Origin: Massalongia carnosa
Lineage: Eukaryota
Direction: 5' to 3'
Assembly: GCA_965645245.1 (NCBI GenBank)
Contig: OZ287086.1
Span: 186,001 to 250,000 of the forward strand
Length of the DNA stretch: 64,000 nt
Under the pieces are notes generated by a model. It made no database searches. It saw nothing but the letters and a program-made list of their open reading frames with translations, and was not told the DNA's origin. This document shows, one piece after another, positions 2,035-50,810 of this stretch. Position 1 is the first letter of the stretch, and every line of letters starts with the position of its first letter. The translations under genes and the position numbers were made by a program.

Positions 2035-3380
2035 TATTGAATATCCAATTCCTACCAGCACAATGAACACCTATCAGTACAATAAACATAGCACCTACGG
2101 CTGCCCTAGATTGACAGATCATCTACGGTTTCCGTAGATGCTGCATTAGGCTTAGTCCCAAGATAAGATAAGATCAACTCGCTTAGAAGGGGTTGACCAG
2201 TAATAGGAAAAGATTGCTACCTAGTAAATCTTCATCCTTAACAGCACGGTCATACATGTAATACGGATGGCGCTAGAGGGATACGTGATCGCCTAGGGCG
2301 GTTGCGGGATTAACTAGCATGAGCCAAGCCGTAGTACGAAGTCGCATAGCCGTCGAGGTTGCCACATCGCCACCTTGACACATCGCTATCTTGCCACAAC
2401 GCCACCTTGCCACACAACTTCGGATTAGTTGTTATCACGTTCTAGACTGCTTACAGATCAAACACCTGTCGAGGCCGCGGTGGTAGATTGCCATGGAGTG
2501 TAAGGCGAACTCCTGTGGACAATAGTATTGAACTCTATATGGAATCTACTGGCCTACTCGGAGCTACTCGATCTCTTGATGGATCAAGAGTTGTAGCAGG
2601 AGGCACGGCTAGCTGGACGCAGCTTGAGCTCGGCCTCCCCGGTGTAAACTTCAGCTTCCACCTTTATTGCTACGCTGGTAGTGATGTCGGCTGAATGAAC
2701 CTACATGACCTTGTGGTCTAGACCTTGTGTCTAGAGGCAGGTCCGCAGTGTAGACAGAGATTCAGTCGGAGGTAACCTTCCACCGTTACGTTGGTAGTGG
2801 TGACGGCGAAATGAAGCTACATAGCCTCGGCGTCTAGACTTTATGTTTAGAGGCGGGCTAGCAATGTGGCGAGGGATCTAGCCGGAGGTAGAAGCGTTCT
2901 ACCTTGCAAGGGAAGGTCTAGAAGGCTGCTCGAGGCTGACTAGATGATCCAGCGAACGCCGAGTTCGTAGATGGATCCTGAGGGATGGTTGTATGTAAGG
3001 CGATAAGGTCAGAAGTGGGTTGCAAGGCTCCTAAGGTTCCAAGGCTCCCAAGGCTATAGGCTTGGGGTGAGTAGGATAAATACCAGAACGAATCCTGTAG
3101 TATTCGTTAGCAATTAGTCTTTATTCTATGAACAACCTACGTTTGGGTCTCGGACGAGATCTCTTGGTCTAAGCACTTCCACATCCATAAGTTCTTTGGA
3201 TCACGTATACTCTCGGAGACCAGCACGTAGTAGCTATCTTCCACCTCTCACGCTGAGCATTTCCCCTTTCGAGATCAGTGTCGCTCGTGATTAGCTTACT
3301 GGTCTCGTACCCCATTACAATACAAACAAACCTTTATTATTACATAGCCATATAGCCATAGTTATATACCTATTTCAACA
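2035..3380 (+). repeat. Solo LTR family B, split by a family A solo LTR
   Basis: TATTGAA (mutated TGTTGAA)...TTCAACA with TSD TCTGT at 2030-2034 and 3381-3385. Confidence 0.9.
2257..3319 (+). repeat. Solo LTR family A (Ty3/Gypsy)
   Basis: TGTAAT...ATTACA, TSD ATACA; homologous to the LTRs of 45688-52207. Confidence 0.95.
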
Positions 3381-3470
3381 TCTGTTTGATGATGATGATG
3401 ATGTATTCATACTCCGATATGACACCGGCCGTAGGCCGGCCCATGCGGGCAAAGCTATCTAAGTTATGTT

Positions 3471-6400
3471 CTTTGATTACAGGAGGCTTAGTGGCAGACT
3501 GAAGGCTTTGAAAGGTGATTATATTAATGCTACCTAGAAGGAAGGAAGTTCGAGGGGTCCTCCCGAGGACCTTATTGACCAGATTGTTTGCTATAGCAAA
3601 CACCTCCTTAATCACCTTACCGGATTAGGATTCAGGGGGCCGGCCTATTGTAAGGCCGGCCTCCGATAAGGCTAGGTGGACCGTCGCTATTGTCAATCCA
3701 AAGCTCCCTCACAATAGGAAGGTTCCAACCTCCAGAAGTTTGAATCAACCTCATTGATTTGATGCCTCAGGGGCAGTGGTCATATTCATCTGATCGATGA
3801 ACCTTCGAAAGGAGATCCACGGTAGAGGCTTGGTTAGTCCATCAGCTATCATGTCCTTAGTGGGCACATAGCTAATTTGAATAGCTCCCTCAGCGATCAG
3901 CTCCCTCGTCTTATGATATTGGATATCGATGTGTTTGGCCCGAGGATGATTGATGGGGTTGTCGGCTAGCTTTATAGCCGCCGTATTGTCAGCTTTCAGG
4001 GGAACGGGGCCATTGACACCATATCCCAAGGATTTCAAGGCATTCGCCAAGAAGACAGCCTCCTTGCCAGCATGGCACTCCCCCATATACTCAGCCTCAG
4101 CTGTGGAGGTGGCCACCGAGGCCTGGCGTTTCGTTGACCAGCTGATTGGTCCGCTGTTCAGGAGGAAGACATAGGCGGAAGTGGATCTCCTAGTGTCCAG
4201 ACAGTCTCCATATGAGGCATCAGTATAACCGATTAAATCAGTGTGAACACCCTCATAGGAGGATCCAAAACATAGGCCTAGGTCCCTTGTTCCAGCCAAA
4301 TATCGAATTATTCTTTTTAAGATTGCGCCTTGATAGGGGGTAGGATTGATTGAATATCTACTGCAGCGATTCACCGAGTAAGCAATATCCGGCCGAGTCA
4401 TACATGCTAACCACAATAGAGATCCATAAGCATTTGATATGCCTTGATCTCTCTATTTGTAGCCTCGTATATCTTGCCTTTATAGTAATTCTTGACCAGA
4501 AGAAGATTGGTCTCCATGGGTGTTTTGACGGATTTGCAATCGGACATGTCGACTGCATCGACGATCCGCCTAATGTACGCCGATTGATGAACATATATTC
4601 TTCTATTTGGCCGGTCCCGAGTGACGTGCATCCCTAAATAGAAATTAATTGGTCCGAGATCCTTGATCCGGAATCGGTGAGACAATTCAGTCTTCAAAAG
4701 ACTGATGTCCGAAAGAGAGGGTCCGATGAGAAGTAGATCATCCACATAAATCGCTATTATGATGCCATTTTGCTGATGAATATAGACCGAATGGTCCTCG
4801 TCCACTCTCCTATAGCCCATGGTGATAAGATAGTCAGTGAGGGTGGAATACCATTCACGGGGGGCCTGCTTGAGACCATATAAGGCCTTCTTTAAGCGAC
4901 AGGCATATCCCCCTGGTTTGTCAAACCCATGGGGTTGTTCCATCCAGACCTCCTCTTTTAGAGGGGCCTCAAGGAAAGCGGTGACCACGTCGATCTGTTC
5001 GACCTCCAGGTCATATCTAGCCGCTATAGCCAGCAGGGCCTTCCATGTCATTGATTTGACCACGCTGGCATAGGTTTGATTATAGTCAATGCCTTCTATC
5101 TGGCAAAAACCTTTACCTACCCATCGGGCCTTATATCGAGATATTTCCCCATCCGGACCGAGTTTGGTGGTATAAACCCATCTACCAGGGAGGATCTTCC
5201 TACCAGGTGGTGGAATTTCCAGGTCCCAGGTCCCGTTGATGGAATGAGATTCAACCTCCTCCTCTGATGCTCGGATCCATTCGGTAGCCTCTGAAGACTG
5301 AATGGCCTCCTTGTAGGTGCTGGGGACGGTGAGGTCGTTTAAGGAGGCCTTAAGAGCTCTCAATGCGAATCCATTGTTACCCCCTTTCTTAGACCATGGA
5401 TCAGCTAATTTAGCATAATCGGGTCGAGAGGTGTTTCGGGATGGTCGGGATGATGATGTTGGTGGAGGTGGTGGTCTAGGTTCCTGAGGTACCTGTCCTG
5501 GTGCGGATTTGATCGACTGCTCGGAATTACTAGCAAATTGGCCTGTAAAAGGAGCAGTTGATGACCCAGAGGTCAGGTCGGCTACTTGTGAGTCCTCGGA
5601 ATTTTCTGAACTTTCTGATTTATCATCGTCCTCTCTCCCGGTTCCTTCATCTGCAAATTCCGGTTCTAAAGGCCGTTTAGGGGGTTCCTCATTAACGAGT
5701 TCCTCCTCTTCATTGGCATAAACTATCACTCCTGGTGTGTCCACCTCGTCGTCACCATTTCGGTAGAAGAATTGTAAGAAGCCATAGTCGTCGTCGCCAC
5801 TATCCCCCGATTCTTCAACCGAAAGGGATGCGGTCTCGTCCCATAGCACGTGTGCCGAAATGATGAGTTTCTTGGAGGTGAGGTCCCAAAGGCGATACTT
5901 GTTGTTGCCTTGAAGGCCAAGAAATCTGCATTTGATGCTTCTGTCGTCCAGCTTCTTCTTCTGAGGGTCAACATTGTAAGAGTATGCTACGCACCCGAAG
6001 ATACGAGCACCCGACAAGTCTGGCTGTCTGCCATACATCAGTTCGAAGGGTGTTTTATCACCATGCCTTGGACTCCTGTTTTTCAGGTAAGTAACGTAGG
6101 AAATAGCCTCCCCCCATTGATTAGAAGGCATTCCACTGTCACTAAGAATCGCACGGGTTCGCTCAAAGAGGGTGCGAAAGCACCTCTCGGCTACCCCATT
6201 CTGATTCGGATTGTGTGGTGCTGTCGCATCCCACTCGATGCCATTGTCCTTCAAAATTTGTAAGGTCTGATGGCCAGCATACTCCCCTCCGTTGTCACTG
6301 CGCATAAGTTTGACCGGATGTCCTTGTGTCTTCATCCATGCTAAATAGTCCTTTAGGACCTCCTTTAATTCGGATTTTTTCTTCAGAAGGTAAATTACCG

Positions 6401-8529
6401 TCCAGTCAGTAAAATCGTCAACGAAGGAGGCAGCATACTTGGCTCCCCCAATTGTCTGAGGTATGTCCCCCCCGCCAGCAATGTCGGTATGTACAATTTC
6501 ACCGATGTTGGTGGCCTTAAGTCGTTGAATTCTAACTGGATTTCGATGTTGTTTTCCTATTGCACATGATGGACACACGTTGATTTTAGGTTCTGCTGAT
6601 TCACATTTATCAGCCTTAATTGCATCAATGCCAGTGGAGAGTTTAGCTAAAATCTTGACGGCCTTCATGTTGAGATGGGCTAATCGTCGGTGCCACACCG
6701 TCCACGAGGCATTGTCGGAGGATTTGTAAGAGGTATGTAAGGTCTTTGATTGGTCCAGGTCGATCGAGTGTGTGGATCCAGAAGACTGACGAGTACCAGT
6801 AAGACAGAGTTCTCCGTCAGGGGCAAAACATTCAGTTCTTCCTTTTCCTACTCGAAATTCGAATCCTTTCGACTCAGTAACACCTACAGAAAACAGATTA
6901 TATGCTGACTCGGGTACGTGATGGACATCCTTTAGGCATACAGCCTTTGATTCACCATCCACGTCTAGATACAGGGTAACAGATCCTTTTCCTTTAATAA
7001 TCATATCAGTGGAGTTGGCCGTTTTTATGACCTTCCCTCTAATTGATTGATAGTCATCAAATAGGTCTTTGTCATAGCAAATATGGACATCGGAAGCCGA
7101 GTCTATCCACCAGGTACGATCCTTATTTTGAGACTTATGGACGTTAGTAAAGAGGGTCTTGGTTATCATTGATCTTGGAACGAAGGCTGATTTGGACGAG
7201 GGATTCGATTCCTTCTTGTCCTTATCCTCCTTCCTATCCTCCTTCTTATTCTTCACCAAGTTTTCCTTAGATGGGGCCGGTTTCCAGTTATCGGGCCGGT
7301 TGGTTGCATTCAGATAATAGCAATTGGTCTTGTTGTGGCCAGGACCGTCACAGTATTCACATTTTGACGAATTGGTATTTTTCTCCTTTTTCCCCTTTTT
7401 GCTCTTCTTATCTTCTTCTTTCTTTTCCTTCCTGTTGAACTTAGCCGTCAGTGCCTTGTTGGATTCCTCTAAGTTATGTTGACGGTTATCATGATCTATT
7501 AAGGCCATCATCATCTCGTCAACGTCTAACTCCCTCATGTTTGCTCTTGCAGCCTCTACGAGACTGAAGATATAAGGTTCCAGGTCCGGTTTAAGACCAA
7601 GTCGGAACGAGGTAGAGAGAACCCAGTCTGGTAACTTGTGACCGAGTTGTATCAACTGGGAATGGGCCTTCTTTAGGTGTTCGGCGTACTCCTGAATGGA
7701 TTTGAAATCTGATTGGCTAGCACGAAGTTGAAGGAAGGCCAGGTCTCTAGTGGCCAGAGTTGTTGCTTTGTAATGCTTTTCCAGTACATCCCACATCTCT
7801 TTTGGGTCTTCCAGGCCCTCTATATGGACTCGAGGGCCTGTTCCACAGTTCAAGTATATCTTGGTAGCTGCTTTTACCCTTCGCTTGTCCCATTTCTTCT
7901 GTTTGTCCTCGAAGGCCTCCAGTTTGTCCTCCCACCGCTCAATAGTGCTTTGTCACACTAGTATGGCCGGGGTGGTGACTCCATCCTCTATCTTAGAAGG
8001 GGAGTCCACTGGTCGAGGCGGAGCATTAAGGGGTCGGAGTTCTTCCCCTTTAACTATATCCCACAGTTCGTCTAAACTGAGGAGGTCTTTCACCTCCTCC
8101 TTCCATACATTGTAGTTCTTTTCACCTACCAACGGCTTTATCTGATAAGTTTCTAGTCCCATTGTTGAAGACTAAGCACCGACAGCTGAGGAGGTTCTTT
8201 GAGGCTTGATAATTGGCTTACAAGGACGAGGACTAGATATGTAGGAAGAGAAGAGATTATATAGCACTTCCCTAGCGTCTAGCCGGGCTCATAACCCTTT
8301 GATTACAGGAGGCTTAGTGGCAGACTGAAGGCTTTGAAAGGCGATTATATTAATGCTATCTAGAAGGAACGAAGTTCGGAGGGTCCTCCCGAGGACCTTA
8401 TTGACCAGATTGTTTGCTATAGCAAACACCTCCTTAATCACCTTACCGCATTAGGATTCAGGGGGCCGGCCTATTGTAAGGCCGGCCTCCGATAAGGCTA
8501 GGTGGACCGTCGCTATTGTCAATCCAAAG
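3471..8529 (-). mobile_element. Full-length Ty1/Copia retrotransposon with 233-bp LTRs (8297-8529 and 3471-3703)
   Basis: Direct repeats differing at only a few bases; PBS GGTTATGAGCCC at 8296-8285; PPT GTGAGGGAG next to 3703; TSD ATGTT. Confidence 0.97.
3751..8162 (-). pseudogene. Copia gag-pol polyprotein (gag, CCHC, protease, integrase, RT, RNase H) with two lesions
   Basis: CEYCDGPGHNKTNC, WWIDSAS, WHRRLAH..C..C, RSDNGGEY, YVDDLL, YTDASY, KHIDI in Copia order; in-frame TGA at 7953-7955 and a frameshift near 4420. Confidence 0.95.
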
Positions 8530-9303
8530 ATGTTACATGGAAAACCTTTCACAGGTGTAAAAACCATGTCCCTTGATACCCGTCCGATGTGACTTCGGGT
8601 CGACGTCGGGCGGGAGACGCAGTGCAAAAGACGTGTGGGAACTATAATGCCTTGTGAAAAGAGAAGAAAGAAAGAAAGGTTCAACTATTGTTGATTTTAC
8701 AATAATGTTGATGCTGGTGAGAATTGATTCAATAAGCCTGTTTTCATTAGCCAAGCAGTTAGTATCTTCAGAGTTTTTGATGATTTGGTCAGCTGCTGAT
8801 AGTCGCTCGTGCCGGCGGCGCGAAACATCTGTTCTCTATTGTCAATAAGTCTGCAGAACATGATTACATGTTCTGGAGTTTGTCTGTGCCAGCCACATGA
8901 GCAGGCCGGTGAGGTGACGGAGGGCACCCGTCGCTTGTAGAGGAAGTCAGCTAACCCGATCTTGCCAGTGCGGATTTGTGTTGTTAGAGCGCTTTCTGCC
9001 TTTTTTAGCTGCGTGTGTATTTTCAGCCGTTTTTTGCTCAGTGGGACTGCTTGTGCTATGGAGAGTTCGATGACTTCAACATCTGTTTATATATATGATT
9101 TATTCAACAAAATTCTGAAAACTGTAAAATCGTTGATGAATATTTTCGTGTTTGACAATCTCGATGAACGCATAACGCATTTTCTCGTAACAGCGCAACA
9201 AATCGAAAAAAGCATCAATTAGATAAAACAATTCATTCAAAATCTTCGAGATCGTTTAAACGTTAATAAAATCAATTTATTTGCAATGATTAATAACAAA
9301 AAC

Positions 9304-11989: not shown

Positions 11990-13990
11990 AATTAGCGGCT
12001 ATTCGAATTATTTTCTAGCATTAGAGTAGTTAAAGCATTTTAATGCTCATTCTAAAAGGGTTCAAAAAGGAACGTTTAGGCTTCTTTTTGTAAAGCGGTA
12101 CGAGACCAGTAAGCTAATCACGAGCGACACTGATCTCGAAAGGGGAAATGCTCAGCGTGAGAGGTGGAAGATAGCTACTACGTGCTGGTCTCCGAGAGTA
12201 TACGTGATCCAAAGAACTAACGGATGTGGAAGTGCTTAGACCAAGAGATCTCGTCCGAGACCCAAACGTAGGTTGTTCATAGAATAAAGACTAATTGCTA
12301 ACGAATACTACAGGATTCGTTCTGGTATTTATCCTACTCACCCCAAGCCTATAGCTTTGGGAGCCTTGGAACCTTAGGAGCCTTGCAACCCACATCTGAC
12401 CTTATCGCCTTACATCCAATCATCCCTCAGGATCCATCTACGAACTCGACGTTCGCTGGAGCATCTAGTCAGCCTCGAGCAGCCTTCTAGATCTTCCCTT
12501 GCAAGGTAGAACAGTTCTACCTCCGGCTAGATCCCTCGCCACATTGCTAGCCTGCCTCTAAACATTAAGTTTAGACGCCGAGGCTATGTAGCTTCATTTC
12601 GCCGTCACCACTACCAACATAGCGGTGGAAGGTTACCTCCGACTGAATCCCTCGCTACACTGCGGACCTACCTCCAGACACAAGGTCTAGACAACGAGGT
12701 CATGTAGGTTCATTCAGCCGACATCACTACCAGCGTAGTAATAAAGGTGGAAGCTGAAGTTTACACCGGGGAGGCCGAGCTCAAGCTGCGTCCAGCTAGC
12801 CGTGCCTCCTGCTACAACTCTTGATCCATCAAGAGATCGAGTAGCTCCGAGTAGGCCAGTAGATTCCATATAGAGTTCCCGGCTAGCGTCCACACAGGAG
12901 TTCGCCTAACACTCCATGGCAATCTACCACCGCGACCTCGATAGGTGTTTGATCTGTAAGCAGTCTAGAACGTGATAACAACTAATCCGAAGTTGTGTGG
13001 CAAGGTAGCGTTGTGTCAACCTCGACGACTATGCGACTTCGTACTACGGCTTGGCTCATGCTAGTTAATCCGCCATCCGTATTACACTTTTGTTGGATGG
13101 ATATGGATCTTATCTAACGTAAGAATTTTGGGAATATTCGAAAGAAAATTAGATCTGTTTATTCAGATTACCCCCTCATTCAACCCATTTGACGCAGCCA
13201 TTGGACGTTGGTGTTTTTCAGCCAATGAAACATTATCATGCTGAAGCGGTTGACAACGCCATTCGGTTGGGTGACGTTGACTTAAATCGTCTGGATTTTC
13301 TGGCCGCATTCAATCAATTTCGTACATTTCGTACAAAGGCATTCAAATCATCTACTATCAAATCAGCCTGGGAAAAACTGGGTTGATACCTTACAATCCG
13401 GAGGTAGTCTTGACTAAAATTCGTGCTTTAAATCCGGCATTACTACCACTACCAATATCATCTTCGGAGACAATAATTCTACCTCATACCCCCAAAAACC
13501 CCAAAGACGTTGCTAAGGAAGGGGAAAACGTTATTCAACGAATGAATAATAATGAAGAAATTACTCCAGAAAGAATGCGACGTTTTATCAAAGGGTCGGT
13601 TGCAAACGCTAATTTACTAGAATTGACGCAACGCGACTTGCAAGCCACACATACAGCTGCATTAGCTAAAAGGGCCCGAAAAAAGCTTGCTGGCACCGTT
13701 GTTCAGAAGGGAGGAATCGTTACCGTTCGAGATGTGAGGCACAATCACCTACATCGTACCCAAGAAGAGGTGGAAAGGGAGGAGGGTCGCCAAAAGCGTG
13801 CTGAGACGGCTAGACAAAAGAAAATATTTCTCTATGGAAAAGCGATAGCTAAACGGTTTGGCTTGGTGGGTAAAAAGGCTGAAAGCTGGATATATGAACG
13901 TCAGCCTTTGATTTTGAATAGCTTCATTTTGAAAGGGTCAATCAATGGATATAATGTAAATAGTTTGAAAAATGCGTCATGGAGATGATA
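11990..13990 (+). mobile_element. Degenerate pogo/Fot1 DDE transposase relic interrupted by a solo LTR
   Basis: LLDGYGS and LPPHSTHLTQPLDVGVFQPMK motifs with stops and frameshifts; boundaries approximate. Confidence 0.85.
12089..13086 (-). repeat. Solo LTR family A
   Basis: Reverse complement of 2257-3319 with short deletions; TSD CTTTT. Confidence 0.95.
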
Positions 13991-17249: not shown

Positions 17250-19221
17250 ACTAATAATAACCCAACTGCTCCTGAACATCATCCTCGTCGCTGTCGTCGA
17301 CATCGTCGCCTACTTTCTCTTCCATTTCAAAGGCAACGAAGTCTTTTTTGTGACGAAACGAGATAGTGAATAGATTTCTACCATTGCGCCACCTGTCCTC
17401 CAGACCAAAAGGCACAATACTTAGTCCGCAGACCAAGCTCTATTCTAATATAACTGGGACTCCTGCTATGTTCGCTGTAGGTCCTGCCGTCCGCACCACG
17501 CTTGGTCGAACCGTTACATTTTTGTAGACGAATAGAATCACCTTCACCTATAAATTGTAGATTTTGATCACCAATAGTATCCATGATAAAGATAGTCTCT
17601 GTCTCTTCCTCTTCATCATTGAATATATGAGTATCTTTTACTCCTTTCTTCGTCTGTTTTTTGGTCTATTCCGTCTGCCTAGTAATGTCGCTCGCCTTCC
17701 AAATGGCCTCACCTCGCGAAGTAGTCGTTGTCTCGAAATGCCTCACTCGGTCAGTCCAGCACTTTACAAATCTCTGACGAAAAGAAATGTAGGTGGCATT
17801 AAGATACTTCACCAAATCAGCATGTCTACGATTGTATGTGATTCGAAACTGTCCCCACATCTCTTCAAAATTCGGCTCGGAATCAGCCTTAATAAGTGAT
17901 TTCCATCGTCCGTAAAAGACTTCCCATGCCTCAGTACTGAACGATTTCTTGCAATGAGCTAGGACATTCTTATTGATGTGCCAGATACACAATAAATGAC
18001 TGGTAGATGGAAAAATCAGCTCAATTACTGACATCAAACCTCTATCCATGTCGGTGACTGTCGTCGTTGGAGAAGGAAGTTCTAGCTGCGAGTACAAGAC
18101 TTTCAAACGAGTCATGGCCCAGATGTAAGACTCATTTGTCTCCTCATGCATGAAGCAGAAGGCTACATAGAACGTAGTATGCAATGCGGTCTGTCCGCCG
18201 ATGATCAACAAAGGCATTTTGAATCTGTTGGTTTTGTAGGTGCAATCCATCACTAAAACTTCCGGATTTGCCTTCAAAAGAGTCTGAGTACTGCATTTAC
18301 TGAAAAAAAGATTGACGATCTGATTGGTTCTCATCATTAGTCTGCAACTTCAGTTGTCCTGTCCTTGTCAAACTCACCTGATTCTCATCATTTGTCTGCA
18401 ACTCGTATACCCAGTCGCCCTTGTCAAACTCCTGAATCAGACTCTGTATCGGAGTCAATGAGCCCAAAGCATTTCGTCGCAATTGAGCTCGAAAGTTGTA
18501 GATGTGTCGACTGATAAACATCGGATTGACGACTTCAGGATTGCCATTCTCATCCCATCTGACCGAATTCGGAGTCGGAGCTCCAATACGAAGACTCGAC
18601 AGCACGTTGGCCGGTTTGGTTTGTACAGTCAATTGACGAGAAATCTCCTCCTTATGCTCGATCGAGGCGATTCTTCGATGCGCGGGATGTGCTCCACTCA
18701 AGCTAGCTTCATGATTATGTTCCGGTTTGACTACTTCCAAATGCCAGGCAACGTCATTCACGAAGGTAGCGATGCAGGAAATGGGACACTCAATTCATCT
18801 ACTGCTACTGTGACGTCGTTCTTCGCCTTGCGGTCTGGCCTTGCGACCTCGATCGCAGATGATCCACGCTTTTCGACGAATTCCCAGCTTTTATTTCTTG
18901 GTACGATGCAGGACAACGGCGTATCCCTCAGGGCCGGCATGTCGATTCAGGCAGAATAGACAGTCTTCTAGAGTTTCGAAAGACTGCCGTCGGCGGGAGG
19001 TAATAGAGGCATGATTGATCCAATATGTAGGATCAGGAAACTGAAAATTGAGATGAGAAAATGAAGAATTTACGTCACTTATCCTGATCGAGGAAGATGG
19101 CTTCCTAATGAGGTTTAGGGAGGGGTCCAGCCCTACCCCTAGAATTTTTTTGTGTGGGGTGTCTAGATAGCCGGAAAGGGTGTGTCTAGGTAGCGGATGG
19201 GGTGTCCATATATCAGTACCC
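17250..19221 (-). mobile_element. Degenerate MULE (Mutator) transposon
   Basis: HNH, MDCTYKTNRFKMPL, TDMDRGL, LLCIWHI and TTSRGE motifs; start near 19012 resembles the MULE at 61800; repeat-rich end at about 19120-19221; partner TIR not found. Confidence 0.88.
17349..17518 (-). repeat. Solo LTR family C (TRIM LTR) inside the MULE
   Basis: TGTGAC...GTTACA, TSD TTTTT. Confidence 0.93.
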
Positions 19222-20069: not shown

Positions 20070-23000
20070 ATGAACCTCTCCTTTAGAAGATTTCCCGAGG
20101 AAATGCCGCACCCGACGAAATGCCGCATCTTCTCACTTTCCAACCATTACTTTCAAACATGAATAAATCCACCCTCAACGCTCGTATCGAGCTCGCAATT
20201 CCTGATCTGAATCAGCAAGATCAGCCTAACCTCAGGGGTACAGCTAAAAGGTTTAGACTAGTCGAAAGTACCCTCCGGAGGCGCTGGAAAGGCCAAACGG
20301 TGTCCCAAAAGGCAGCCGCGTCAAAATACAAGCAACGACTTACCTTGGCCCAGGAAGAGGCCTTAATTCAGCAAATCAATCGCCTTGTCGATCGTGGACT
20401 GCCCCCAACCGCCAGAATTGTACGAAACCTAGCGGAGGAGGTGATAGGAGGGCCTGTAGGGAAGAACTGGACAGGGGATTTGTCCGCCGATACAAGGATA
20501 GGCTTAAAAGTCTTTATCTTCGAAATATGGATAGCCAGCGTATAAAATCTGAGTATCCGCCTTTATTTAAGCAATTCTACCATTTGGTAGCGTGTTAACT
20601 ACCTATTCCTATTTGTTGAATATTAATTATGATCGAAAATAACTAATGTTTCTATTAGCTAGTCGCCGTTGTCGAAAAATACAATATCACGGGGGAAAAC
20701 CTTTACAATTGGGACGAAAAGGGCTTTGTGATTGGCCAAGCAAGTGCCACGCAACGTATCATGTCGCTAGAGGCCCTCGAATCAGGGCAGATCACACATG
20801 CAAGCCAGGACGGGAATAGGGAGTTTATCAGCCTCCTTGCTTGTATCGGGACCGACGGAACCGCTTTACCTCCTGCCTTGATCTATAAAGGCGACTCTGG
20901 CATACTCCAGGATACATGGGTTGAGGATGTAAATCCTAATGACGAGGCGTTCTTTGCAGTATCGGCGAAAGGATGAAGTTGTGATATCCTTGGCCTGAAT
21001 TGGCTAGAGCAGGTTTTTCAGCGTTATACGAAGCAAAAGGCTAGAAATAGAAGACGTTTACTGATAGTAGACGGTCATTCTAGCCACGTGAATCTTAAGT
21101 TTATCGATAAATGCGATAAGTTACGTATTCTTCTCCTGATTCTACCTTCGCACTCTACGCATCGTTTACAGCCTCTGGACGTTTCTCTATTCGCGCCGTT
21201 AGCAACGTTCTATACCAATGGGCTGAATAGACTAATGTTCGATAGTCTAGGCATGATAAACATGTCAAAAAGAGCCTTTTGGAGCGTTTTCTTCCCTGCA
21301 TGGCAGCAGGCATTTTCGGAGGAAAAAATTACTTCTGCCTTCGAAAAAATCGGTATTTGGCCTTACAATCCGAGCCTTATACTGAATGTTATCACACCAC
21401 AGATAATCGAGGCTCCTTCTCAGTCGCCAAAAACACCAATGACAAGCCGTGCTATTCGCCGTACGCAGCGAGCGTACGATATTGCGCCTACGAAGTTATT
21501 ACTAGGAAAGATCTTCCGGGCTAACGAACGCCTTGCTGCCCAGGACTCTATCAACAAACACGTGATCAAAGAGCTCTGCAATACCCTTCAGAACGAAAAG
21601 AAGGAGGAAGAGAGGTAAACGGCTTAATTTAGTTGGGGAAGAGGACTCAGGCCCTCAATTCTTTAGTCCTAAGCGAGTACAGGCTGCCAGGGAATTTCAA
21701 GCAGCAAAAGAGGAAGTAGAAGCACAACGCCAGCTAGATGTTAGCGAGAAGCGACGACAAGCTACTACTAAAAGGTTACAGAAAGAAGAGGAGAAGCTAG
21801 AAAAGGTAGCAATCGCTCTAGAGAAGCGGCGATTGACTGCAGAAGCAAAGGTAGCAAAGGCCGCTGAGAAGCAGGCTCAGAAGGAGTTACGTAAAGCAGC
21901 AAACAGATATCCTAAGGGACAGCTCGGGCAGCAGAAGCAGTATACAGGGTCTAATAAAGTTCAAAAGACTCGAAAGAAGAAGGTAAAGCCGCCTACTCGT
22001 GTTATTATCGCTAAAGAGGTAGAGGAGGTGGTTTTAACTACCTCGACTGGAAGAAGGGTCCAGTGCCCAGGGCGTTTTGCTATGTAAGGTTTTTAGGGTC
22101 GGATATCGTGTATATACTTTCTATTTATACTATATATAATACACATTCCATTAATCGTTGTAGTTGTTGATTAACGACGAAAACAATATTCTAATGCCGA
22201 ATTGTAAAGTGCGGCATTTCCTCGGGAAATCTTCTATATATCTACTTTGTATTCTCTCTTGTGTGTTTGCAGCTAGGTTTTGGGCTCGACGCTTTCATTC
22301 CTGTGAGATATCATGCTTCTTTGATAGTGTAATTTACAGGCTGACTATCATGGTAAGCTGTTGTCGCGGGTGACTGGCTTTATATTTCTGGTGGTGATGT
22401 TGCTTATTGGGGTTACACTGCCGTGGGTCAAGAGCATACGATCGTGGTGAGTAGCAAGTCGAAGATCTTCGATTGTGTCAACGACTAATTCCATATGTTG
22501 GAATAAACAGAAAACTATACCTATGGAATCAATCTATCCAAGGATTGGACAAATTCCACTGTAGAGCTAATCCCAACCAAGAGACCCCCGAATAACCCTG
22601 CGCTCTGCCTTGAAGCTCTATGGCTTGACAACCTTCGCAGTTCATTTTATGCTTTCGGAGGCTATCGATCTTTCGCCACCACATTTACAGGAAATTCTTT
22701 CCCTCCTTCTGAATCTATCTAGCAGTTTTAGCTGAATGGAGGAGGGAGTGGTAATTGGAGCGAACTCCTCGGTCCTATCAGTTCGATACCATTTCCATCT
22801 GACATTCACCGTATAGCAAACGGTGCTACTGTGAGCGATGGTAGTAGTGCGTACTATATTGGGGGGTTTTACTCCTTGGAAACATCCACAGCAGCTCCCT
22901 CGACCAATCGGATCCCATCCTCTGGACTACTCGAGTTTGATTTCGACACTCTTATAATGACTAACTCAAGTGACGATGACTACCCAGCCGATATGGATGA

Positions 23001-24144: not shown

Positions 24145-24967
24145 GATCGAGGATAATACGTTAAAAAGCCCAAAGCTTAGTAGATCTTAAATCATGCGTT
24201 AAATTACTTTTTGTATGATTAGTATTCAAAAGAGAACCAATGACGAGAAATGGGACGTTTTCAAACGAAAAATACTTCCATAAACTTGTTGTTTCTTGAC
24301 GTCGAGCATCGACAATAGAAGCACGAGCTTCTACAGGTATAAAAACAGATAATCAAACATAGTAAAATAAAACTCAATGTTTTGTTTTATTTGACTGAAT
24401 AATCCCTTTAGTTTGAACATTATAAAATGAACTTTTTCTTATTGAAATCACGCATAATCGCAACTTCATCAAAATTCACTATGTAAAGCCGGATTTGTAA
24501 ATTACTTATTGAACTACTCTAGAATGTTCAGGCAGAAGAATCCTTTTATATTGTTTAAACCGATCGGTAATGTTTAACATCGAGTTATATGATCAAAGTT
24601 TGTTTATCGTGACATTTCTTTCGCTAACGTTTAAAGTTGACAGGTGCATTCTTTATAAACTATGCTACAGCATGCATATGCCGCCTCGAGAGTTGAAGTA
24701 CATCATGACGTGATCCATCATCCCACGCGTCTGCCGGATCAAGAGATCAGCAATCCTATTCGCTAGTGACTGCCTTCATCGCTGCATCATCTTCACCTCA
24801 ACCGCATCGGAAGAGGTCTAAATGTCGTTCGATGACAGGGGTAGGGGACCTTCCCCTTACTACTTATACATTCGCAGCCTGGAGTCAACTTTTATGTCCT
24901 TCTTTCGAGTTTGTCGATTCTTAAAACTGAGTTGCGTTCAAAGGGCATCTCGTACCTGAAATTTTCA

Positions 24968-26730
24968 ATGGATATCAGCAATCGGAGCGCAAAAGATGTG
25001 GAATCCTTCCAAGATGCCACCCTTAGTATGCGACTCGGTTCCGAGGATGACATTGCCCAAGAAGCCCATGCTGCTGCTCTACACGAACACTCCCTGAGCC
25101 CTTTTCAAGCAATCTCCCTATACCGTGGCGCGGCCTTTTGGTCCGCCTTCTTCTGCATCGGCCAGATCATGATCGCATTCGACCCTCAAGTCCTGGTCAA
25201 CTTGTTCGCCATGCCCTCGTTCCAGAATGAATTCGGATACCGATTCGACGGACAGTACATCATTTCCGCGCCGTGGCAGACAGGTCTGCTGATGGGAGGG
25301 CCAATCGGCCAAGTCGTGGGCTCACTATTTGCGGGGTATCCCCTCGAATGGTTTGGCCGGAAGAGGACTTTTGGGTCCTGCGTGATCGGAACGACGGGGT
25401 GTATTTTCATCCAATTCTTCGCGCGATCTCTCGGGGTGTTGCTAGCAGGTGAGCTGCTCGGTGGACTGATACTAGGTTTCTATGCCGTCATAACGCCCGC
25501 CTATGCGTCGGAGGTCTGCCCGGTTCCACTCCGGGGCATCCTCACTGCAAATATCAACCTTTGCATCGCGGTAGGACAGTTTCTTGCCAACTGTGTGTGC
25601 GCGGGGACACAGCATTTGGATTCTCATTGGGCATACAGTGCTCCTTATGCTTTGCAATGGCTGTGGCCTGCAATCATCTTCCTGGGCCTGCCATTCGCTC
25701 CCGAAAGTCGGTGCTAAAGTCCCCTTGTGACCAAGATCATCTACTTATTTGGATCCGCAGGTCCATGGTGGCTCGTCCGTCAAGGCCGGCTTAACGAGGC
25801 CCAAGAATCTCTACAAAGCCTCGTCTCTTCCCGCGTCAACGTGAAACAAACCCTCGCATCCGTCATCGAGACCAACCGCATCGAGCAAGAAATGGAAGCC
25901 GGAACCACCTACCGTGACATATTCCGCAAAGACAACTTACGCAGGACAGAAATCTGCACGGGCGTCTATACGGTTCAAGTATTCTCCGGTATCTACCTCG
26001 TCGGGTACGGCACATACTTTTTCGAACGTACGATACCCTTTTCCTCCCCCCACCCAAGCCTTCCCTCCTCCACTTTTCCGTTTCTAACGCCTCCGCCCTA
26101 GAGGCCGGCCTCCCGACCTCCCAAGCCTTCAATATATCTCTCGGCTTTCTCGCCGTTGGCGTCATCGGCTGCATCCTCTGCTGGTTTCTCATCGCTAATT
26201 TCGGTCGGCGCCCCATCTACACCTACGGCCTCTACCTCCTCACCGCGCTCCAACTTTTAATCGGGATCCTCGATTGCGCACCCGATTACTCGCATCACCA
26301 GAGCGTCATTTGGGCTCAGGCAGCCCTGCTCCTGACTTGGAACTTCTTTTATAACTTCACCATCGGCCCCGTCGGCTTCTCCATCCTGTGCGAGACGTCC
26401 GCGACGCGGGTGCGGGAAAAAACCATCGCGTTCGCGACAGCGGTGCAGGCGTTGGTCGGGATTGGGATGACGATCGCCGTGCCGTATATGATCAACCCCG
26501 ATCAGGCAGATCTGCGTGGGAAGATGGGATTTTTCTTTGGGGGCCTGGAGGCGGTGAGTTGCGTGTGGGTGTATTTTCGGGTTCCGGAGACGGTATGTTC
26601 GCACAGGATATATCTCGCTCGTCAACACGGATGACTAACGGATACCCAGAAAGAGAGAACTTATACGGAACTAAATCTCTTGTTCGAGAGTGGCGTGCCG
26701 GCAAGGGGTTTCAAGGATTATGTGCTTTGA
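24968..26730 (+). CDS. MFS sugar porter, alpha-glucoside/maltose permease-like; exons 24968-25706, 25761-26027, 26102-26592, 26650-26730
   Basis: FGRKRT, YASEVCPVPLRG, PESPWWLVR, FGRRPIY and VPETK motifs; three canonical introns; frame intact. Confidence 0.93.
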
Positions 26731-30885: not shown

Positions 30886-31008
30886 TTCTGCAAATTAAAC
30901 ATGAGAATTTGACGAAAATATAATGATTAAAGTAATAAAAGTTTTGCTTAATAATCATCATTTCTTGATGACGAATTTTCAGACTTTTCAGAAATTTCAA
31001 ACGTGTTA

Positions 31009-33852
31009 ATGATGATGATGATGATGATTCTTATTCCGATGTGGTACCGTCCGAAGGCCGGCCAATGCGGGCGAGTCTATCTAGTTTTATAGTACATGGA
31101 AAACCTTTTGAGGAAGAAAAACCATGCAATCCTGTGTCCGGCCGAGGACCCTCCGGGTCCCAGCCGTGTGCTCCATGAAAGAACCTTCGACCTAAGACAA
31201 GTATGAAAAATGAAACAAAGTATGCCTAATGTTAGCAGTATAGATGCTGTGCTGTCAGCGAAAATTGTGACAACAAACCTGTCTTCATTAGCCACTTTGT
31301 GACTAATTTCATTGCTTTAGATGACTCAATAATTAATCGATAGTTGTTTGTGTCTATCGTATTTAGCAGAGTTTTTCTGTTGTCGTTGAGTTTGCAAAAC
31401 ATGATCACATGTTTTGTAGTCTGTTTGTGCCAGCCACATGAGCAATATGGGGACGAGACGTCTGGAACTCGGTGTCTATGTAGGAAGGCGGCTAGGCCTA
31501 TCTTTTCTGAGCGTGTCTGAATGGCTAGCGCGCTCTCCGCATTGGCTAGAGTTTCGTGCAATTTGATGCGTTTTTTGGAGAGTGAACCTGATTGTGCCGG
31601 GGTAGGAACGGGTGTGCGTTCCTGATATAATCTCCACGAGGCCTGCTATGCAACTGTGTGTCGTTTTTTGATTTCAGCAGTTATTTTGTTATGAGAGGCG
31701 CGTGCCTCCCCTATTTCTCGGGTGAGATTCGGGGGGGATTCGGCCCATGGTGGATTTGGTGTCGGTGTTGGAGGGTTATGTGCCTCCGATGTGATTCTCT
31801 TAGCCCAGGCGTATTTCAGCGTTCCTGGAGTGATGACTGGGGCCCTCTTGCGTCCTGCCCGACCTCGAAGTTTATTGGTTATTTTGTTGCATGCATTTGT
31901 GATGAAACTCTTTTGACCATTTCGACATAGGCGTTGTCTGGTCTGGGCTTGTAGTTGATCTAAATGTATGTCAACTGAGGCTATAAATGTCTCTGCATCT
32001 AGTACAGCTATAGGCGTTGCCTTGAAGGCTCCGGCTATGTTTCTTAGACATTTGTTTTATATGATAGCAAGTTTGTTTGAGATAACGTTTGATTTTTGAA
32101 TTTCTTTTGGCATGTGCCAAATGGTGGAGCCGTACGTCATGGCCGGCCTGACTACGGCGGTGTAAACCTGGCGTGTCTTTAGAAGAGTGGCGCCCTATGT
32201 GGAGGTGGATATTTTTGTCAATGCCCTAGATTTTTTTGTCATTTTTTCCTGGATTTTCCTTGTATGAGCACCCCATTTCAATTTTGAATCGATTTGAAGT
32301 CCTAGAATTCTGATATCTGTCTTTGGTTTTTTGATTTTATTTACTATTTAAATAACAGTAAACATGTTGAATTTCTTCGGAGCGAAGACTGAATCATGTC
32401 GACTTGCCTATTTTTCACATTTTTTGTGAATTACATCTAGCGTCTTGCAATTTTCTTCGGTGCTTTTTCCGTATGCTAGCACATTGATGTCATCTAGGAA
32501 GCCTAGAGCACAAGTGTTGCTGCCTGGTCTTTCACATATGTCTAGTAGGTCTGCATTGTAGAACAGATAAAGAATAGGAGAAATGGGGGAGCCTTGTGGA
32601 ATTCCGGTTTTTACATCGAATATGCCCGTGACTCGGCTGTGAATCGCCATGGTAGTGGTTCTTTCATTCAGAAAACAGTTCACCTAGTCAGTGATCCATT
32701 TTGGGATTTTACTTTTGCGAAGATTGTGAATCAGTCTTCGATGTGTCACTGTGTCATAGGCTCCTGCTACGTCCATGCTCAATAATATGGCTACTTTGTC
32801 TGTGCCTTGGCCCTACACTGTATGAATTTGTTTAGTCAACAATTCTAGTGCAGATTCGGCTGATCTTCCTCGTCTGGCGCCCATCTCGGTGTCGGGTAGG
32901 AGTCGGTGGGTTTCCGCTAGATGGGTTATTTTTTGTGACATGATGGATTCCATTACTTTTCCAAGCGTGTTTAGGAGTGCTATGGGTCGATAGCCGTTTG
33001 GGGCCGAATAGTCATCCTTGCCTGTTTTCTTGAGCGTGATTGTGTTGGCGGTTGTGAATGCACGAGGATAATATGCTTGTTCTACACATGCTTGAAACAG
33101 TGGGGTGAGTAATTTGACTAGCTTTTCCGAGCATGCCTTTACAATTCTGTTGGCTACTCCGTCCGGTCCCGGGGCCGTATCGGGCTTGAGTCGGCGTATG
33201 GCTTCCAGCACCTCTAGTTTGGTTATGATCATTAGACATTGTGGCGGGCTGGGGTAAAATGAACCCTCTATTTCGCTGAGGTCGGCCAGAGGGGCGGGTG
33301 GAAAGAATTTCTGTTTTAGCATGTCTGATTTCTCCTCGATCGTCTCTGCTACTTTGTCGTCTCGAACGAGATTGGGCATTTTGGGAATTTCTCTTGTCTG
33401 TTCACTTTTGTCTTTCGCCCATTTTGCTAGTCGCCAGAGACCAGTCGTCGATTCGGTGACTTTTTCTATTTCCTTGCGGAACGATAGTCTTTTAGCCTTT
33501 TGAATGATTTTTTGTTTTCTGTGATTGGATGTTGTGTATGTTATCCAATCAGAAATGTCTCTGGAATTGGACCAGACACGTCTGAGCCTACGAGTTTCTT
33601 TCGTGATCACACTGCATTCATCATTCCAAAAGGGTTTGGCGTACTTACTGGGTCTAGCCTAAGGTACAGAGGTTTCTATCACTTCTTGAAGAAATTTTTG
33701 AATCGACACGGTGTAAGCATCGATTTCGGCGGGGGATTGGGGTATCTTCGAGGGGGGCGCCCTCTTTTCCGCTTCTCTCAGTTTTCTCATATTCGTCAGT
33801 TTCCAGGCCCTGCGTTCTCTGATAGTTTGAACCTCACTGTTCAGCGCAATTC
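31009..33852 (-). mobile_element. Tad1-like LINE copy 1 (RT and C-terminal part of ORF2, 5'-truncated, multiple stops)
   Basis: (ATC)n tail; APGPDG, YRPIALLNTLGK, GIPQGSPISPILY and FLDD motifs; C-terminal CCHC-like motif; colinear with copy 2. Confidence 0.95.
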
Positions 33853-41299: not shown

Positions 41300-41393
41300 T
41301 TTGGGTAACCCAATGAAAACCCAACCCGAACCCAACCCAACCCAACAATAACCCAACCCGAACCCAACCCAACCCAACCCATTCCGCGGCGTA
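41300..41393. mobile_element. Orphan hAT-like terminus with AACCC subterminal repeats
   Basis: Ends ...CCCATTCCGCGGCGTA, related to the MITE TIR; abuts the broken 3' end of LINE copy 2. Confidence 0.65.
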
Positions 41394-41628
41394 GCTGTCA
41401 GCGAAAATTGTGACAACAAACCTGTCTTTATTAGCCACTTTGTGACTAATTTCATTGCTTTAGATGACTCAGTGATTAATCGATAGTTGTTTGTGCCTAT
41501 CGTATTTAGCAGAGTTTTTATGTTGTCGTTGAGCTTGCAAAACATGATCACATGTTTTGCAGTTTGTGTGTGCCAGCCACATGAGCAGTTTGGGGACGAG
41601 ACTTTTGGGACTCGGTATCTATGTAGGA

Positions 41629-45000: not shown

Positions 45001-46807
45001 GCTTAACGTGTTAGGAATAGATAGATTGCGCCAGGGTTCCTGAGTTGCGATAATTTCATAGTCTTGAGTATTCGGATCGGCTAAGAGGGGTAACATTGTA
45101 CTCACTCTGTTATTTCTGACAATGTACTGCAATATGGAGAGAGATTTCGTGTCCCTCATAGGACGTCCATTGATTCGGCCTGGGCGGTCGAGGGGTCGTT
45201 GGTGGTGTTGTTTACTCTGATTATCGCCGGGGCAGTAGATACAGCTCGGGGTCTGAGTGGGGGTCTACCTACAACTGGTTTTGCAAGGGTCTTTGTCATG
45301 TTTTCTGGATTCATGATGCCCGTGTCAGCCCAGGATGGTCCTGTTCGTGGGGGATTCGGGGGGATATCGGAGGAGGGTGCGGTTTTCCTCTTTTTGCTGT
45401 TTGTGCTGCCAAGGACCGGGTTGATGTTTTCGCTCTGGAACCTGATCGAGGCCGGTACGGTGGCAACTAGTGGGTAGAATAGGACCCGTTTTTGCATAGA
45501 CCTCTCTGCTTTGCGTTTTTCGGCTTTCCTGATTTCGCAGGATGTTGACCAGGCTTCGTGCCCCTTTTCACTGCATGCTTCACATCTTCGTTATCTGCCT
45601 GTTGTTTCCATATTGCATTCGGTGCTAGGATGAGCCCCAGCACAGTGACCGCAGACAGTGGGGTTGGGACATGATCGACCTATATGATGTAATACGGATG
45701 GCGCTAGAGGGATACGTGATCGCCTATGGCGGTTGCGGGATTAACTAGCGTGGACCATGCCGTAGTACGAAGTCGCATAAGCCGTCGAGGCTAACACACT
45801 GCCATCTTGCCCCGAAACTTCGGAGTTATTGTTATCACGTTCTTGACTACTTACAGATCAAACACCTGTCGAGGCCGTGGTGGTAGATTGCCATGGAGTG
45901 TAAGGCGGACTCCTGTGGAGACGCCAAGGAACTCTATATGGGATCTACTGGCCTACTCGGAGCTACTGGATCTCTTGATGGTTCAAGAGAGGTAGCAGGA
46001 GGCACGGCTCGCTGGACGCAGCTTGAGCTAGGCTCCCCGGTGTAAACTTCAGCTTCAACCTTTATTACTACGTTGGTAGTGATGTCGGCTGAATGAACCT
46101 ACATGACCTCGTTGTCTAGACCTTGTGTTTAGAGGCAGGTCCGCAGTGTAGCGAGGTATTCAGTCGGAGGTAACCTTCCATCACTAGGTAGTGGTGACGG
46201 CGAAATGAAGCTACATAGCCTGAGGCATGTAGTGAGGGATCTAGCCGGGGGTAGAATTGTTCTACCTTGCAAGGGAAGGTCTAGAAGGCTGCTCGAGGCT
46301 GACTAGATGATCCAGCGAACGCCGAGTTCGTGGATGGATCCTGAGGGATGGTTGGATGTAATGCGATAAAGTCGGATGTGGATTGCAAGGCTGTAATGCT
46401 CGCAAGACTCCCAAGGCTTGCAAGGCTCCTAAGGTTCCAAGGCTCCCAAGGCTATAGGCTTGGGGTGAGTAGGATAAATATCAGAACGAATCTTGTAGTA
46501 TTCGTTAGCAATTAGTCTTTATTCTATGAACAACCTACGTTTGGGTCTCGGACGAGATCTCTTGGTCTAAGCACTTCCACATCCATTAGTTCTTTGGATC
46601 ACGTAAACTCTCGGAGACTAGCACGTAGTAGCTATCTTCCTCCTCTCACGCTGAGCATTTCCCCTTTCGAGATCAGTGTCGCTCGTGATAAGCTTACTGG
46701 TCTCGTAGCCCATTACAATTCTAATTGCTCTCATACCCTACGGGTCAGCCAGCCCGTTTGGAGGAAGCTTAGCTAGTGGAGCCATCTGTTCTTGAACTCC
46801 GCAAACG

Positions 46808-47959
46808 ATGTCTTCAAGCTCTCGCCCTCGCAGGAACGTTCGGCAAGGTCCAACAAGATCTCCCCAGGCAGAAGATACTTCAAGGCCTGCGGAAGAGACA
46901 CCGGCACCAAGCACTGAGGAAGCTACGGGCCCTGCCATATACACCGAGGAAGATCTGCAGCGAATCACAAAGCTCTGCATGGAGTCGTTCCTCCAGGGAC
47001 AAGGCAGTCGACATGAAGGCCCCCGAGAAGGTCAGTTGAAAGCTCGGTTCCCGGATCTCTACTATGGGAAGTCCCATATGGAGTGTTACCATTTCTGCCA
47101 ACAATGCGAAGACCACTTTGACACCGCCGGCGCCACTGGGTCTAACCGTACCCCCTTTGCCGCATCTTTCCTTCGTGGCCGGATTAGCTTTCGTTGGCAC
47201 CAGCACAAACGTCGAAGCCAAGGCGAAGAGGTAGGACCTTTGTCTTGGATCGAGTTCAAGGCTTTCCTTCGGAAGAATCTTGGAGACTCCAGGGCTTTTG
47301 TGGACGCAACCTGGAGTAGGATCAAGCGGGACTCACAGTATCAACAAGAAGAAGTTCAGGATTGGGCTTCTCACCTGGAACATCTGCAATCGATACTCCT
47401 GGAATTTGATGCTGAGGGAGCTCCAGAGGAGTCGGACCTTATTCGGTACTTTCGTGAAGGCCTCAAGCCTTCGATAAAGGCCCAGATGGAACAACGAGGA
47501 AGGGAACTAGACAGTTGGGAGGAGCTGGTCGAAAAAGCGATCGATGCTGAGGCAAAAGCTAGCCTGCAGCCGCAATCGATCCTTCGTGAGATGGATCAGC
47601 GCTGTCCACATGGAAACCGGCCCGCTCATGCCACTGTGGCCAAACCCCAGACCTCTACTCGAGACCCTCGAGACGAGCCTAGCGAAAAGCCCAAACCGTC
47701 GGGTCCGAAGCAATTAAACTCCTCGCGCCCAGAGAACAGCGAGATTGCTGACAAGAAAGCTCGGAGAGAAAAGAAAAGGCAGCGACGTCTTGATCAAGCT
47801 CGAGATCGGAAAGGCTCGGAGTCCACTCCGGCCACCGGTGCCAACACTTCCAGCGGCACCAGCAAGGACTTGTCCCAAATCACCTGCTTCAACTGCAACA
47901 AGAAGGGACACTACTCAAGTACTTGTCGCGAGTCCAAGAAGGACGCCTCAAAAAACTAG
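46808..47959 (+). CDS. gag: Gag (383 aa) with CCHC zinc knuckle
   Basis: Intact ORF; FREGLKPSIK and CFNCNKKGHYSSTC. Confidence 0.93.
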   Translation: MSSSSRPRRNVRQGPTRSPQAEDTSRPAEETPAPSTEEATGPAIYTEEDLQRITKLCMESFLQGQGSRHEGPREGQLKARFPDLYYGKSHMECYHFCQQCEDHFDTAGATGSNRTPFAASFLRGRISFRWHQHKRRSQGEEVGPLSWIEFKAFLRKNLGDSRAFVDATWSRIKRDSQYQQEEVQDWASHLEHLQSILLEFDAEGAPEESDLIRYFREGLKPSIKAQMEQRGRELDSWEELVEKAIDAEAKASLQPQSILREMDQRCPHGNRPAHATVAKPQTSTRDPRDEPSEKPKPSGPKQLNSSRPENSEIADKKARREKKRQRRLDQARDRKGSESTPATGANTSSGTSKDLSQITCFNCNKKGHYSSTCRESKKDASKN

Positions 47960-50345: not shown

Positions 50346-50810
50346 AAGCAAGCCTACAAGCTGGAGCTTCCAAAGCGGTGGCGCATCCATGATGTCATTC
50401 ATGTATCACTGCTGGAGCAGGACACCACAAGGAAGGGGCGGGTGGACGAGAAGATCGCGGAGCAGCTGGAATTCGAAGCTGGTAACGATGAGGAGTACGA
50501 GGTTGAAGGCATTTTGGATAGCGCGGTCTACGCCAAGGAGTCAGAAGCTGGCCACCTACCAGGCCTCTACTATCTGGTCTCCTGTAAGGGCTATCCAGAG
50601 GATGAAAGTACGTGGGAACCGGCGGCAGCGATCAAACACTTACGGAAGATCGTCAAAGCCTACCATGAGGGTAACCCCACCAAGCCGACAGCAACCTCTC
50701 CTCCTATTGACACCGCACCGCCAATGGCTAAGCCGGCCGTTAAGCCTCAAGGCAAGAGGAAACGCGGCCGACAAGCTACCAGCACTCGGAGCAAGAAGGC
50801 GAAGAAGTAG
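50346..50810 (+). pseudogene. Out-of-frame integrase C-terminus and chromodomain
   Basis: KQAYKLELPKRWRIHDVIHVSLLE...EEYEVEGILDS..YYLVSCKGYPEDESTWEP. Confidence 0.9.

Follow-up and report, generated by a model that had tools for sequence, protein, structure and literature searches.

A Ty1/copia retrotransposon with CT...AG in place of TG...CA at the ends of its long terminal repeats

A terminal CA is treated as a near-universal minimal requirement of retroviral-type integrases, and TG...CA termini are typical of Ty1/copia elements, without strictly defining them. One element in a contig from Massalongia carnosa raises the question of whether such an element can propagate with other ends. The stretch analysed here (GenBank assembly GCA_965645245.1, contig OZ287086.1, positions 186,001 to 250,000; 64,000 nucleotides, hereafter the window) contains, at 3471-8529 on the minus strand, a slightly damaged Ty1/copia retrotransposon of 5059 bp whose long terminal repeats (LTRs) begin with CT and end with AG, a rare departure from the near-universal TG and CA. 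The evidence below confirms that these unusual termini are real. It also makes it highly probable that a Ty1/copia family replicates with CT...AG LTR ends by means of its own integrase, and that the target of the copy in the window was the 3′ portion of a high-copy repeat resembling a long interspersed nuclear element (LINE).

Structure and boundaries of the element

The sole pair of repeats given by a repeat finder was two direct repeats of 233 nt at 3471-3703 and 8297-8529, which are 97% identical. When the pair was aligned together with its flanks, 227 of 233 positions matched, and identity began and broke off exactly at the LTR edges on all four sides. In minus-strand orientation the LTRs start with CTTTGGATTG and finish with GTAATCAAAG, the same CT/AG being present at all four edges, and both ends carry a longer imperfect inverted repeat (CTTTGGATTGACA versus CTTTGATTACAGG). 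A target-site duplication (TSD) of ATGTT on the plus strand, AACAT on the minus strand, lies at 3466-3470 and 8530-8534. In an offset scan of 8 bases to either side of each end this 5-bp duplication was the only solution free of mismatches, two 4-bp alternatives each costing one LTR mismatch; the chance of an exact 5-bp TSD at fixed boundaries is approximately 1 in 1024. Inside the element, the polypurine tract (PPT) GAGGGAG (3710-3704) abuts the CTTTGG at the start of the 3′ LTR, and the primer-binding site (PBS) GGTTATGAGCCCGG (8296-8283) abuts the TCAAAG at the end of the 5′ LTR. TSD, PBS, PPT and repeat edge, the four landmarks on which a first-pass annotation of this locus had based its boundaries, were thus all located where it had put them. 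The direct LTR pair with a TSD of 4-6 bp is as expected of Ty1/copia, as are the positions of PBS and PPT, both of which are conserved in relatives. No further copy of the element or fragment of its LTR was found in the window (blastn, word size 7). The features are as follows, a slash marking the LTR border.

8530-8534, minus strand: TSD, the copy upstream of the element as read on its own strand; AACAT, present once in the empty-site contigs
8297-8529, minus strand: 5′ LTR, 233 bp, CTTTGG...TCAAAG; from the repeat pair and alignment
8283-8296, minus strand: PBS GGTTATGAGCCCGG, probably of half-tRNA type, directly after the LTR; 11 metagenome relatives have the motif next to the 5′ LTR as well
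4407-8162, minus strand: frame for gag, protease, integrase and reverse transcriptase; ATG at 8162-8160, in-frame TGA at 7955-7953, ending at a frameshift near 4425; from Pfam domains
3751-4452, minus strand: pol segment for RNase H, read in a different frame; lacking one base that the run contigs have near 4425; alignable with the C-terminal part of full-length relatives
3704-3710, minus strand: PPT GAGGGAG, directly before the 3′ LTR; same position in relatives (...GAGGGAG/TGTTG)
3471-3703, minus strand: 3′ LTR, 233 bp; from the repeat pair and alignment
3466-3470, minus strand: TSD, downstream copy in element orientation; from the offset scan and empty-site contigs

Could a canonical TG...CA element have been inserted and its ends have mutated later? 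The copy is certainly not young, with six differences among 233 LTR positions and two lesions in its open reading frames (ORFs). However, this explanation needs eight identical substitutions, two bases at each of four edges, in LTRs that differ by 2.6% elsewhere, and the nearest relatives likewise lack CA (see below). With CT/AG identical at each of the four LTR edges, mutation after insertion is effectively ruled out.

Paired GGCCGG/CCGGCC palindromic blocks (ggccggcc...ggccggcc), a few bases apart, were also observed in both LTRs (3636-3663 and 8462-8489) and in the unrelated host repeat (3426-3442).

The empty site

Five public runs from three studies contain the stretch, one of them labelled as a lichen metagenome. 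Logan contigs of four of these runs (X1, X2, X3 and X5) were placed on window positions 3000-9000. Contigs that join 3465 to 8530, skipping 5064 bases and with 5 ambiguous bases, were present in three runs (at least 2 in X1, at least 2 in X3 and at least 11 in X5). The skip equals the 5059-bp element plus one copy of the 5-bp duplication. No such joint was found among the contigs listed for X2, in which a loose end at 3470 continues with ACATGGAAAACCTTT and fits the empty site; contigs ending at 8530 are preceded by AAAGCTATCTAAGTT in X1 and X3. The uninterrupted sequence reads ...CTAAGTT ATGTT ACATGG..., with no CTT or AAG at the insertion point, and a diverged paralogue inside the window (approximately 31080-31100) likewise lacks them there. 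Since the empty site holds neither, CTT and AAG belong to the element. The first-pass annotation had named the empty site as the place where these bases, if derived from the target, would be seen; the contigs of three runs hold none, and its claim of 233-bp LTRs that begin with CT and end with AG agrees with both the empty site and all four edges.

These observations refute the proposal that the true ends are TG...CA and that the outer CTT/AAG come from the target or from a longer TSD that was miscalled, a proposal to which we give practically no weight. A TG and a CA do lie three bases inside each end, and it is from these that the proposal draws its appeal. Nevertheless, boundaries placed at them give no TSD, and CTT/AAG are also found at the inner LTR edges, beside the PPT and the PBS.

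The junctions also bear on whether the element was inserted by an integrase. If repair or recombination had captured the cDNA at a DNA break, the ends would be uninformative about integrase specificity. We found no support for such an event, which was raised solely on account of the atypical ends. The exact 5-bp duplication, the complete LTR ends and the lack of extra or missing junction bases are instead the signature of integrase joining, and we consider repair capture very improbable.

The sequence flanking the element is very abundant, its contig depth being approximately 100 times that of the Copia element in the runs. Therefore, the empty-site contigs are other copies of the host repeat, i.e. 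paralogous empty sites. The host repeat spans 3320-3470 and 8530-9100, with paralogues at 30994-31597 and 41394-41628; these encode RVT_1 in minus-strand ORFs and finish in a (TGA)n tract. The repeat is thus probably a microsatellite-tailed LINE, and its earlier designation as a LINE is plausible on these grounds.

Substitution of the terminal bases in comparison with relatives

A profile scan of metagenome contigs recovered 79 loci encoding relatives, of which 25 had a flanking direct-repeat pair. The TSD scan covered 24 loci, comprising 23 of these 25 (L015 and L021 were left out, as their repeats run off the contig) and L001. A 5-bp TSD was found in 13 of the 24: eight had TG..CA ends, two TA..CA (L024 and L060), two TG..TA (L020 and L067) and one TG..GA (L003). 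The duplications directly adjoin TG..GA in L003 and TG..TA in L020 and L067. Nine loci gave no solution and two a spurious 4-bp solution only, and these 11 were not counted. For L001, the LTR pair is diverged (68% identical) with no matching TSD; its use for boundaries was dropped and its LTR end sequences alone were retained. Within the window itself, a Ty3/gypsy element at 45688-52207 served as a control and has TG...CA ends with a 5-bp TSD, TATGA.

A closer inspection of the nearest relatives reveals how the CT...AG ends compare with ordinary ones. On the PPT side the relatives read ...GAGGGAG/TGTTGG and the window element ...GAGGGAG/CTTTGG. On the PBS side, they read ...CCAATA/GGTTATGAGCCC or ...CCAAGA/GATTATGAGCTC, and the window element ...TCAAAG/GGTTATGAGCCC. 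The spacing from PPT and PBS to the inner TTGG/CCAA is the same in all. Given this common register, the two outer bases on each side are substituted (TG to CT, CA to AG) and the LTR is not lengthened by three bases; the ends remain reverse-complementary. The first-pass annotation was therefore right that a TG/CA pair lies three bases inside the ends, but not in treating it as a displaced canonical terminus; judged by the relatives' register, what lies there is the usual second TG that copia end motifs contain. PBS motifs of the putative half-tRNA type were identified in 11 of the 79 loci, preceded by CA in six, TA in four and GA in one; AG preceded the motif in none of the 11.

One further relative has an unusual sequence at this position. 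L004, the deepest member of the clade described below, has after pol (L004:4105-4125) a tract ...AAATGGGAG (GGGAG) followed by CGTTAG where relatives have TGTTGG, which may represent another non-T first base. The copy appears heavily mutated and AT-rich. Its contig lacks a second LTR and its terminus was not callable.

Phylogeny and the integrase

A tree of the integrase-to-reverse transcriptase region (58 rows, being the window element and 57 loci, and 642 columns) was computed with a quick IQ-TREE search under LG+G4. The window element falls in a clade of seven rows with L001, L002, L003, L004, L020 and L067 (SH-like approximate likelihood ratio test, SH-aLRT, 99), within which it is sister to the five rows other than L004 (support 94). 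None of the five clade rows with readable ends (window, L001, L003, L020 and L067) has CA at the LTR 3′ end; the contigs of L002 and L004 do not contain the ends. Such a tree, together with an inspection of integrase residues, had been suggested in the first-pass annotation as a way to follow up the unusual termini, and it places the element in a well-supported clade in which none of the five readable LTR 3′ ends is CA.

The best match of the integrase core to a solved structure was the Ty1 integrase (PDB 7z0h, E 6.9e-14). The catalytic motifs HTD, SDNGGEY and GVAER are present and align with those of the relatives and of 7z0h as a D, D(35)E triad. The residues that follow the catalytic Glu set the clade apart: ERCF(R/C/H)T was found in all six clade rows, ER-x-N/H in most others, and the Ty1 integrase reads ERLNRT, with Asn at the third position after the Glu (E+3). 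Of 122 proteins taken from a database search, 114 carry the motif, with Asn at E+3 in 99, Phe in 14 and Gln in one. All 14 proteins with Phe, a count that includes the query itself (P0001, the predicted protein of the element), are among the 18 best-ranked. In HIV-1 integrase numbering the Glu is E152 and the Asn N155 (PMC3797783), to which copia E+3 appears to correspond, and the models described there predict that substitution at N155 would change where a metal ion and the 3′-terminal nucleotide are positioned. Phe at E+3 is thus a specific candidate for a changed end tolerance, a lead as opposed to a finding, and may be connected with use of the AG end. A His eight residues before the catalytic Glu (Tyr in most relatives) was also considered as a specificity change and dropped, as the canonical loci L010, L044, L053, L060 and L073 share it.

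Coding capacity and family size

Pfam domains along P0001 are Retrotran_gag_2 (10-87), Pol_BBD (248-331), gag_pre-integrs (368-435), rve (454-549), SH3_retrovirus (607-675) and RVT_2 (873-1114). The order gag, protease, integrase, RVT_2-type reverse transcriptase and then RNase H is that of Ty1/copia; the RNase H part gave no Pfam match, its region aligning with the C-terminal part of full-length relatives. The copy in the window is now defective, with one stop in gag (the TGA at 7955-7953) and one frameshift before RNase H (near 4425). At 7954 and 7955, contigs of all four runs have bases other than those of the window, so no TGA is read there; behind 4425, at the frameshift, they have one extra base. 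Internal run contigs extend without a break over as many as 2820 bases, with a difference of approximately 0.6% from the window. It therefore seems that both lesions are absent from other family members.

Contig depth was higher for the LTR than for the internal region in X1 (733 versus 291-330), X2 (100 versus 50-72) and X3 (5413 versus 2467-2744). The LTR depth is thus approximately twice the internal depth in these three runs, which points to few solo LTRs. Internal depth is in turn approximately ten times that of single diverged host-repeat contigs (approximately 24-31, 4-9 and 120-250 in X1, X2 and X3, respectively), from which, as a rough estimate, the family is probably multi-copy with some ten copies. 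An exact scan of genome contigs (596 Gb) for 20 bases of the LTR end found two bacterial records (Enterococcus and Acetatifactor), which were taken as chance, approximately one being expected. In viral contigs, the same 20-base scan gave no match and the protein-profile scan no relative.

These data bear on whether there is an adapted lineage at all. CT...AG could have arisen in one defective parent with mutated inner LTR edges, the copy in the window being a lucky, inefficient integration. One insertion was seen with both flanks, and weak activity of the Ty1 integrase on non-CA ends has been reported in vitro at high Mn2+ (PMC8487063), which is what such an accident would draw upon. However, four coordinated changes that keep the symmetry are unlikely in a single step, and the depths, though rough, suggest about ten near-identical copies with LTR and internal sequence at 2:1 in three runs. 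Moreover, non-CA ends have been propagated in the sister clade, where at least three elements carry them next to TSDs. We therefore regard a defective parent as unlikely, and a family that replicates with CT...AG ends as the better explanation.

Priming and integration

In the complement of the PBS, CAT lies in a context resembling a loop. This would suit the anticodon loop of initiator tRNA-Met, to which the PBS is putatively complementary. The PBS motif is common to 11 relatives; neither the window nor 33 of the relatives' loci yielded a tRNA gene. For copia and Ty5, half-tRNA priming by an initiator tRNA-Met fragment cut in the anticodon loop has been described (PMC5371799). In Ty1 the cDNA is blunt and 3′ processing is not needed, and a terminal CA is the minimal substrate feature of the integrase at physiological metal levels (PMC8487063).

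The replication of the family would then proceed as follows. Transcription would start from the 5′ LTR, with an initiator tRNA-Met fragment on the PBS abutting U5 serving as minus-strand primer and plus-strand priming from the PPT abutting U3. As PBS and PPT directly abut the LTR, the linear cDNA would be blunt as in Ty1, with the ends 5′-CTTTGG...TCAAAG-3′. The element's own integrase, whose D,D,E triad is intact, would join the terminal G-3′OH (...AAAG) with a 5-bp stagger and without 3′ processing. That the joined end was G follows from the integrated 3′ LTR, which ends in G, and from the empty site, which has no G there. The first-pass annotation had suggested either that an AG-3′ end is joined or that 3′ processing is skipped; joining of ...AG-3′ without 3′ processing is the simplest reading, with PBS and PPT abutting the LTR as in Ty1. 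The integrase would then use an AG end efficiently. The ends themselves probably go back to the copia motif TGTTGG...CCAACA, in which the outermost two bases at either end were exchanged while inverted-repeat symmetry was kept.

A more far-reaching possibility is that the lineage has re-specified, and not merely relaxed, the recognition of ends by its integrase: four bases are changed, symmetry is kept and the 3′-terminal base is G, following a clade-wide change from Asn to Phe at E+3. We put this forward tentatively, and think it less likely than not.

Several points weigh against the picture of an adapted CT...AG family. A single insertion of the family was examined with both flanks, so that TSDs of other copies were not seen, and the estimate of copy number rests on contig depths, which are not copy numbers. 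The link between Phe at E+3 and non-CA ends comes from one clade, that is from one evolutionary event, and carries no statistical weight; furthermore, L006 has Ile at E+3 and yet ends in CA. Lastly, the border between U5 and PBS is ambiguous by one base, in that pairing with the tRNA could extend to the final G of the LTR, although the integrated end is the same in either case.

Other elements in the window

Most of the window is derived from transposons. The Ty3/gypsy element at 45688-52207 is apparently young: its two LTRs of 1030 bp show 100% identity, with TGTAAT...ATTACA ends and the TSD TATGA, and it has ORFs for gag, protease, RVT_1 and RNase H. Further copies of its LTR are found at 2257-3320, 54371-55195 and 58067-59091, and in inverted orientation at 12088-12508. 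Fragments of MULE and DDE_1 transposases lie at 17666-18349, 20977-21618 and 24845-26634, together with a sugar-transporter gene that is divided over two ORFs, probably by an intron. Tandem copies of a 9-base unit (CCCTGCCCG-like) and a stretch of AACCC-like repeats were also observed (59622-59819 and 41320-41390).

Comparison with known systems

Copia elements without TG...CA ends are well known in plants, and CT...AG adds a variant to them, not a new mechanism. The LTR_retriever preprint describes seven non-TGCA motif types in 42 of 50 plant genomes, 89% of the elements being Copia, with a mean LTR of 272 bp and only the first T invariable (10.1101/137141). In lotus, eight Copia types are given, in which the first base is T, the second a purine, the third C, G or T and the last A or T (PMC9804982), and Rosaceae add TGTT and AACA types (PMC5659011). 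Named examples include Tos17 (TG..GA), AtRE1 (TA..TA), TARE1/Hopscotch (TA..CA), AcCOPIA1 (TG..TA), the lotus TGCT, TGGT, TACT and TGTT groups, and the TGTT and AACA types of Rosaceae. Like these, the window element is a Ty1/copia with a 5-bp TSD and a short LTR (233 bp, against means of 272-316 bp; 10.1101/137141, PMC9804982, PMC5659011), and both its LTR length and its Copia coding capacity lie within the range of approximately 230-340 bp and the gene content listed for plant non-TGCA Copia (PMC9804982, Table 2). The TG..TA and TG..GA ends of the sister clade fit the plant types, whereas CT..AG fits none of those given in these sources. By the lotus rules, the window element with C, T, A and G departs at all four positions, yet forms a perfect inverted dinucleotide (PMC9804982). 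Moreover, the host is not a plant, the element occurring in lichen-metagenome runs, and its protein shares 28-45% identity with the plant proteins named among the matches listed. No report of CT...AG was found by text searches of the literature, which cannot match a bare dinucleotide motif and whose scope did not extend to Repbase and supplementary motif tables.

The ends of Ty5 of Saccharomyces are TG...CA. Drosophila copia has the same ends (PMC5408687), and in both elements the PBS abuts the LTR, as in the window element, and pairs with the anticodon stem-loop region of initiator tRNA-Met as opposed to its 3′ end (PMC5371799). The window element is unlike them in ending CT...AG. It also differs from Ty1, whose integrase needs CA at physiological metal levels (PMC8487063) and reads ERLNRT, in that its clade has ERCFRT and its own end is AG. 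A parallel outside Copia is with the Drosophila errantiviruses gypsy, ZAM and Idefix, an entire lineage of LTR elements with ends AGT...AnT that are taken to reflect a changed interaction between integrase and end; they differ in belonging to the Ty3/gypsy superfamily, in their terminal bases and in integrating site-specifically (PMC5408687).

Such ends matter for annotation and will be of interest to specialists in transposons and integrases. Programs for LTR detection that accept only TGCA, or a set list of non-canonical motifs (seven in LTR_retriever), would mis-set or reject the boundaries of the family, which is therefore expected to be under-annotated in fungal and lichen genomes. Among the four terminal bases, one or two are changed in the Copia exceptions known so far, and those of the cited surveys keep T first (except AACA) and A or T last; a verified empty site with all four bases changed extends the known tolerance. 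Together with the TA and GA ends of its sisters, the AG of the window element forms a graded natural series. If recognition has indeed been re-specified, the clade would offer a natural series, from CA to TA or GA and then AG, for how DDE integrases read their ends.

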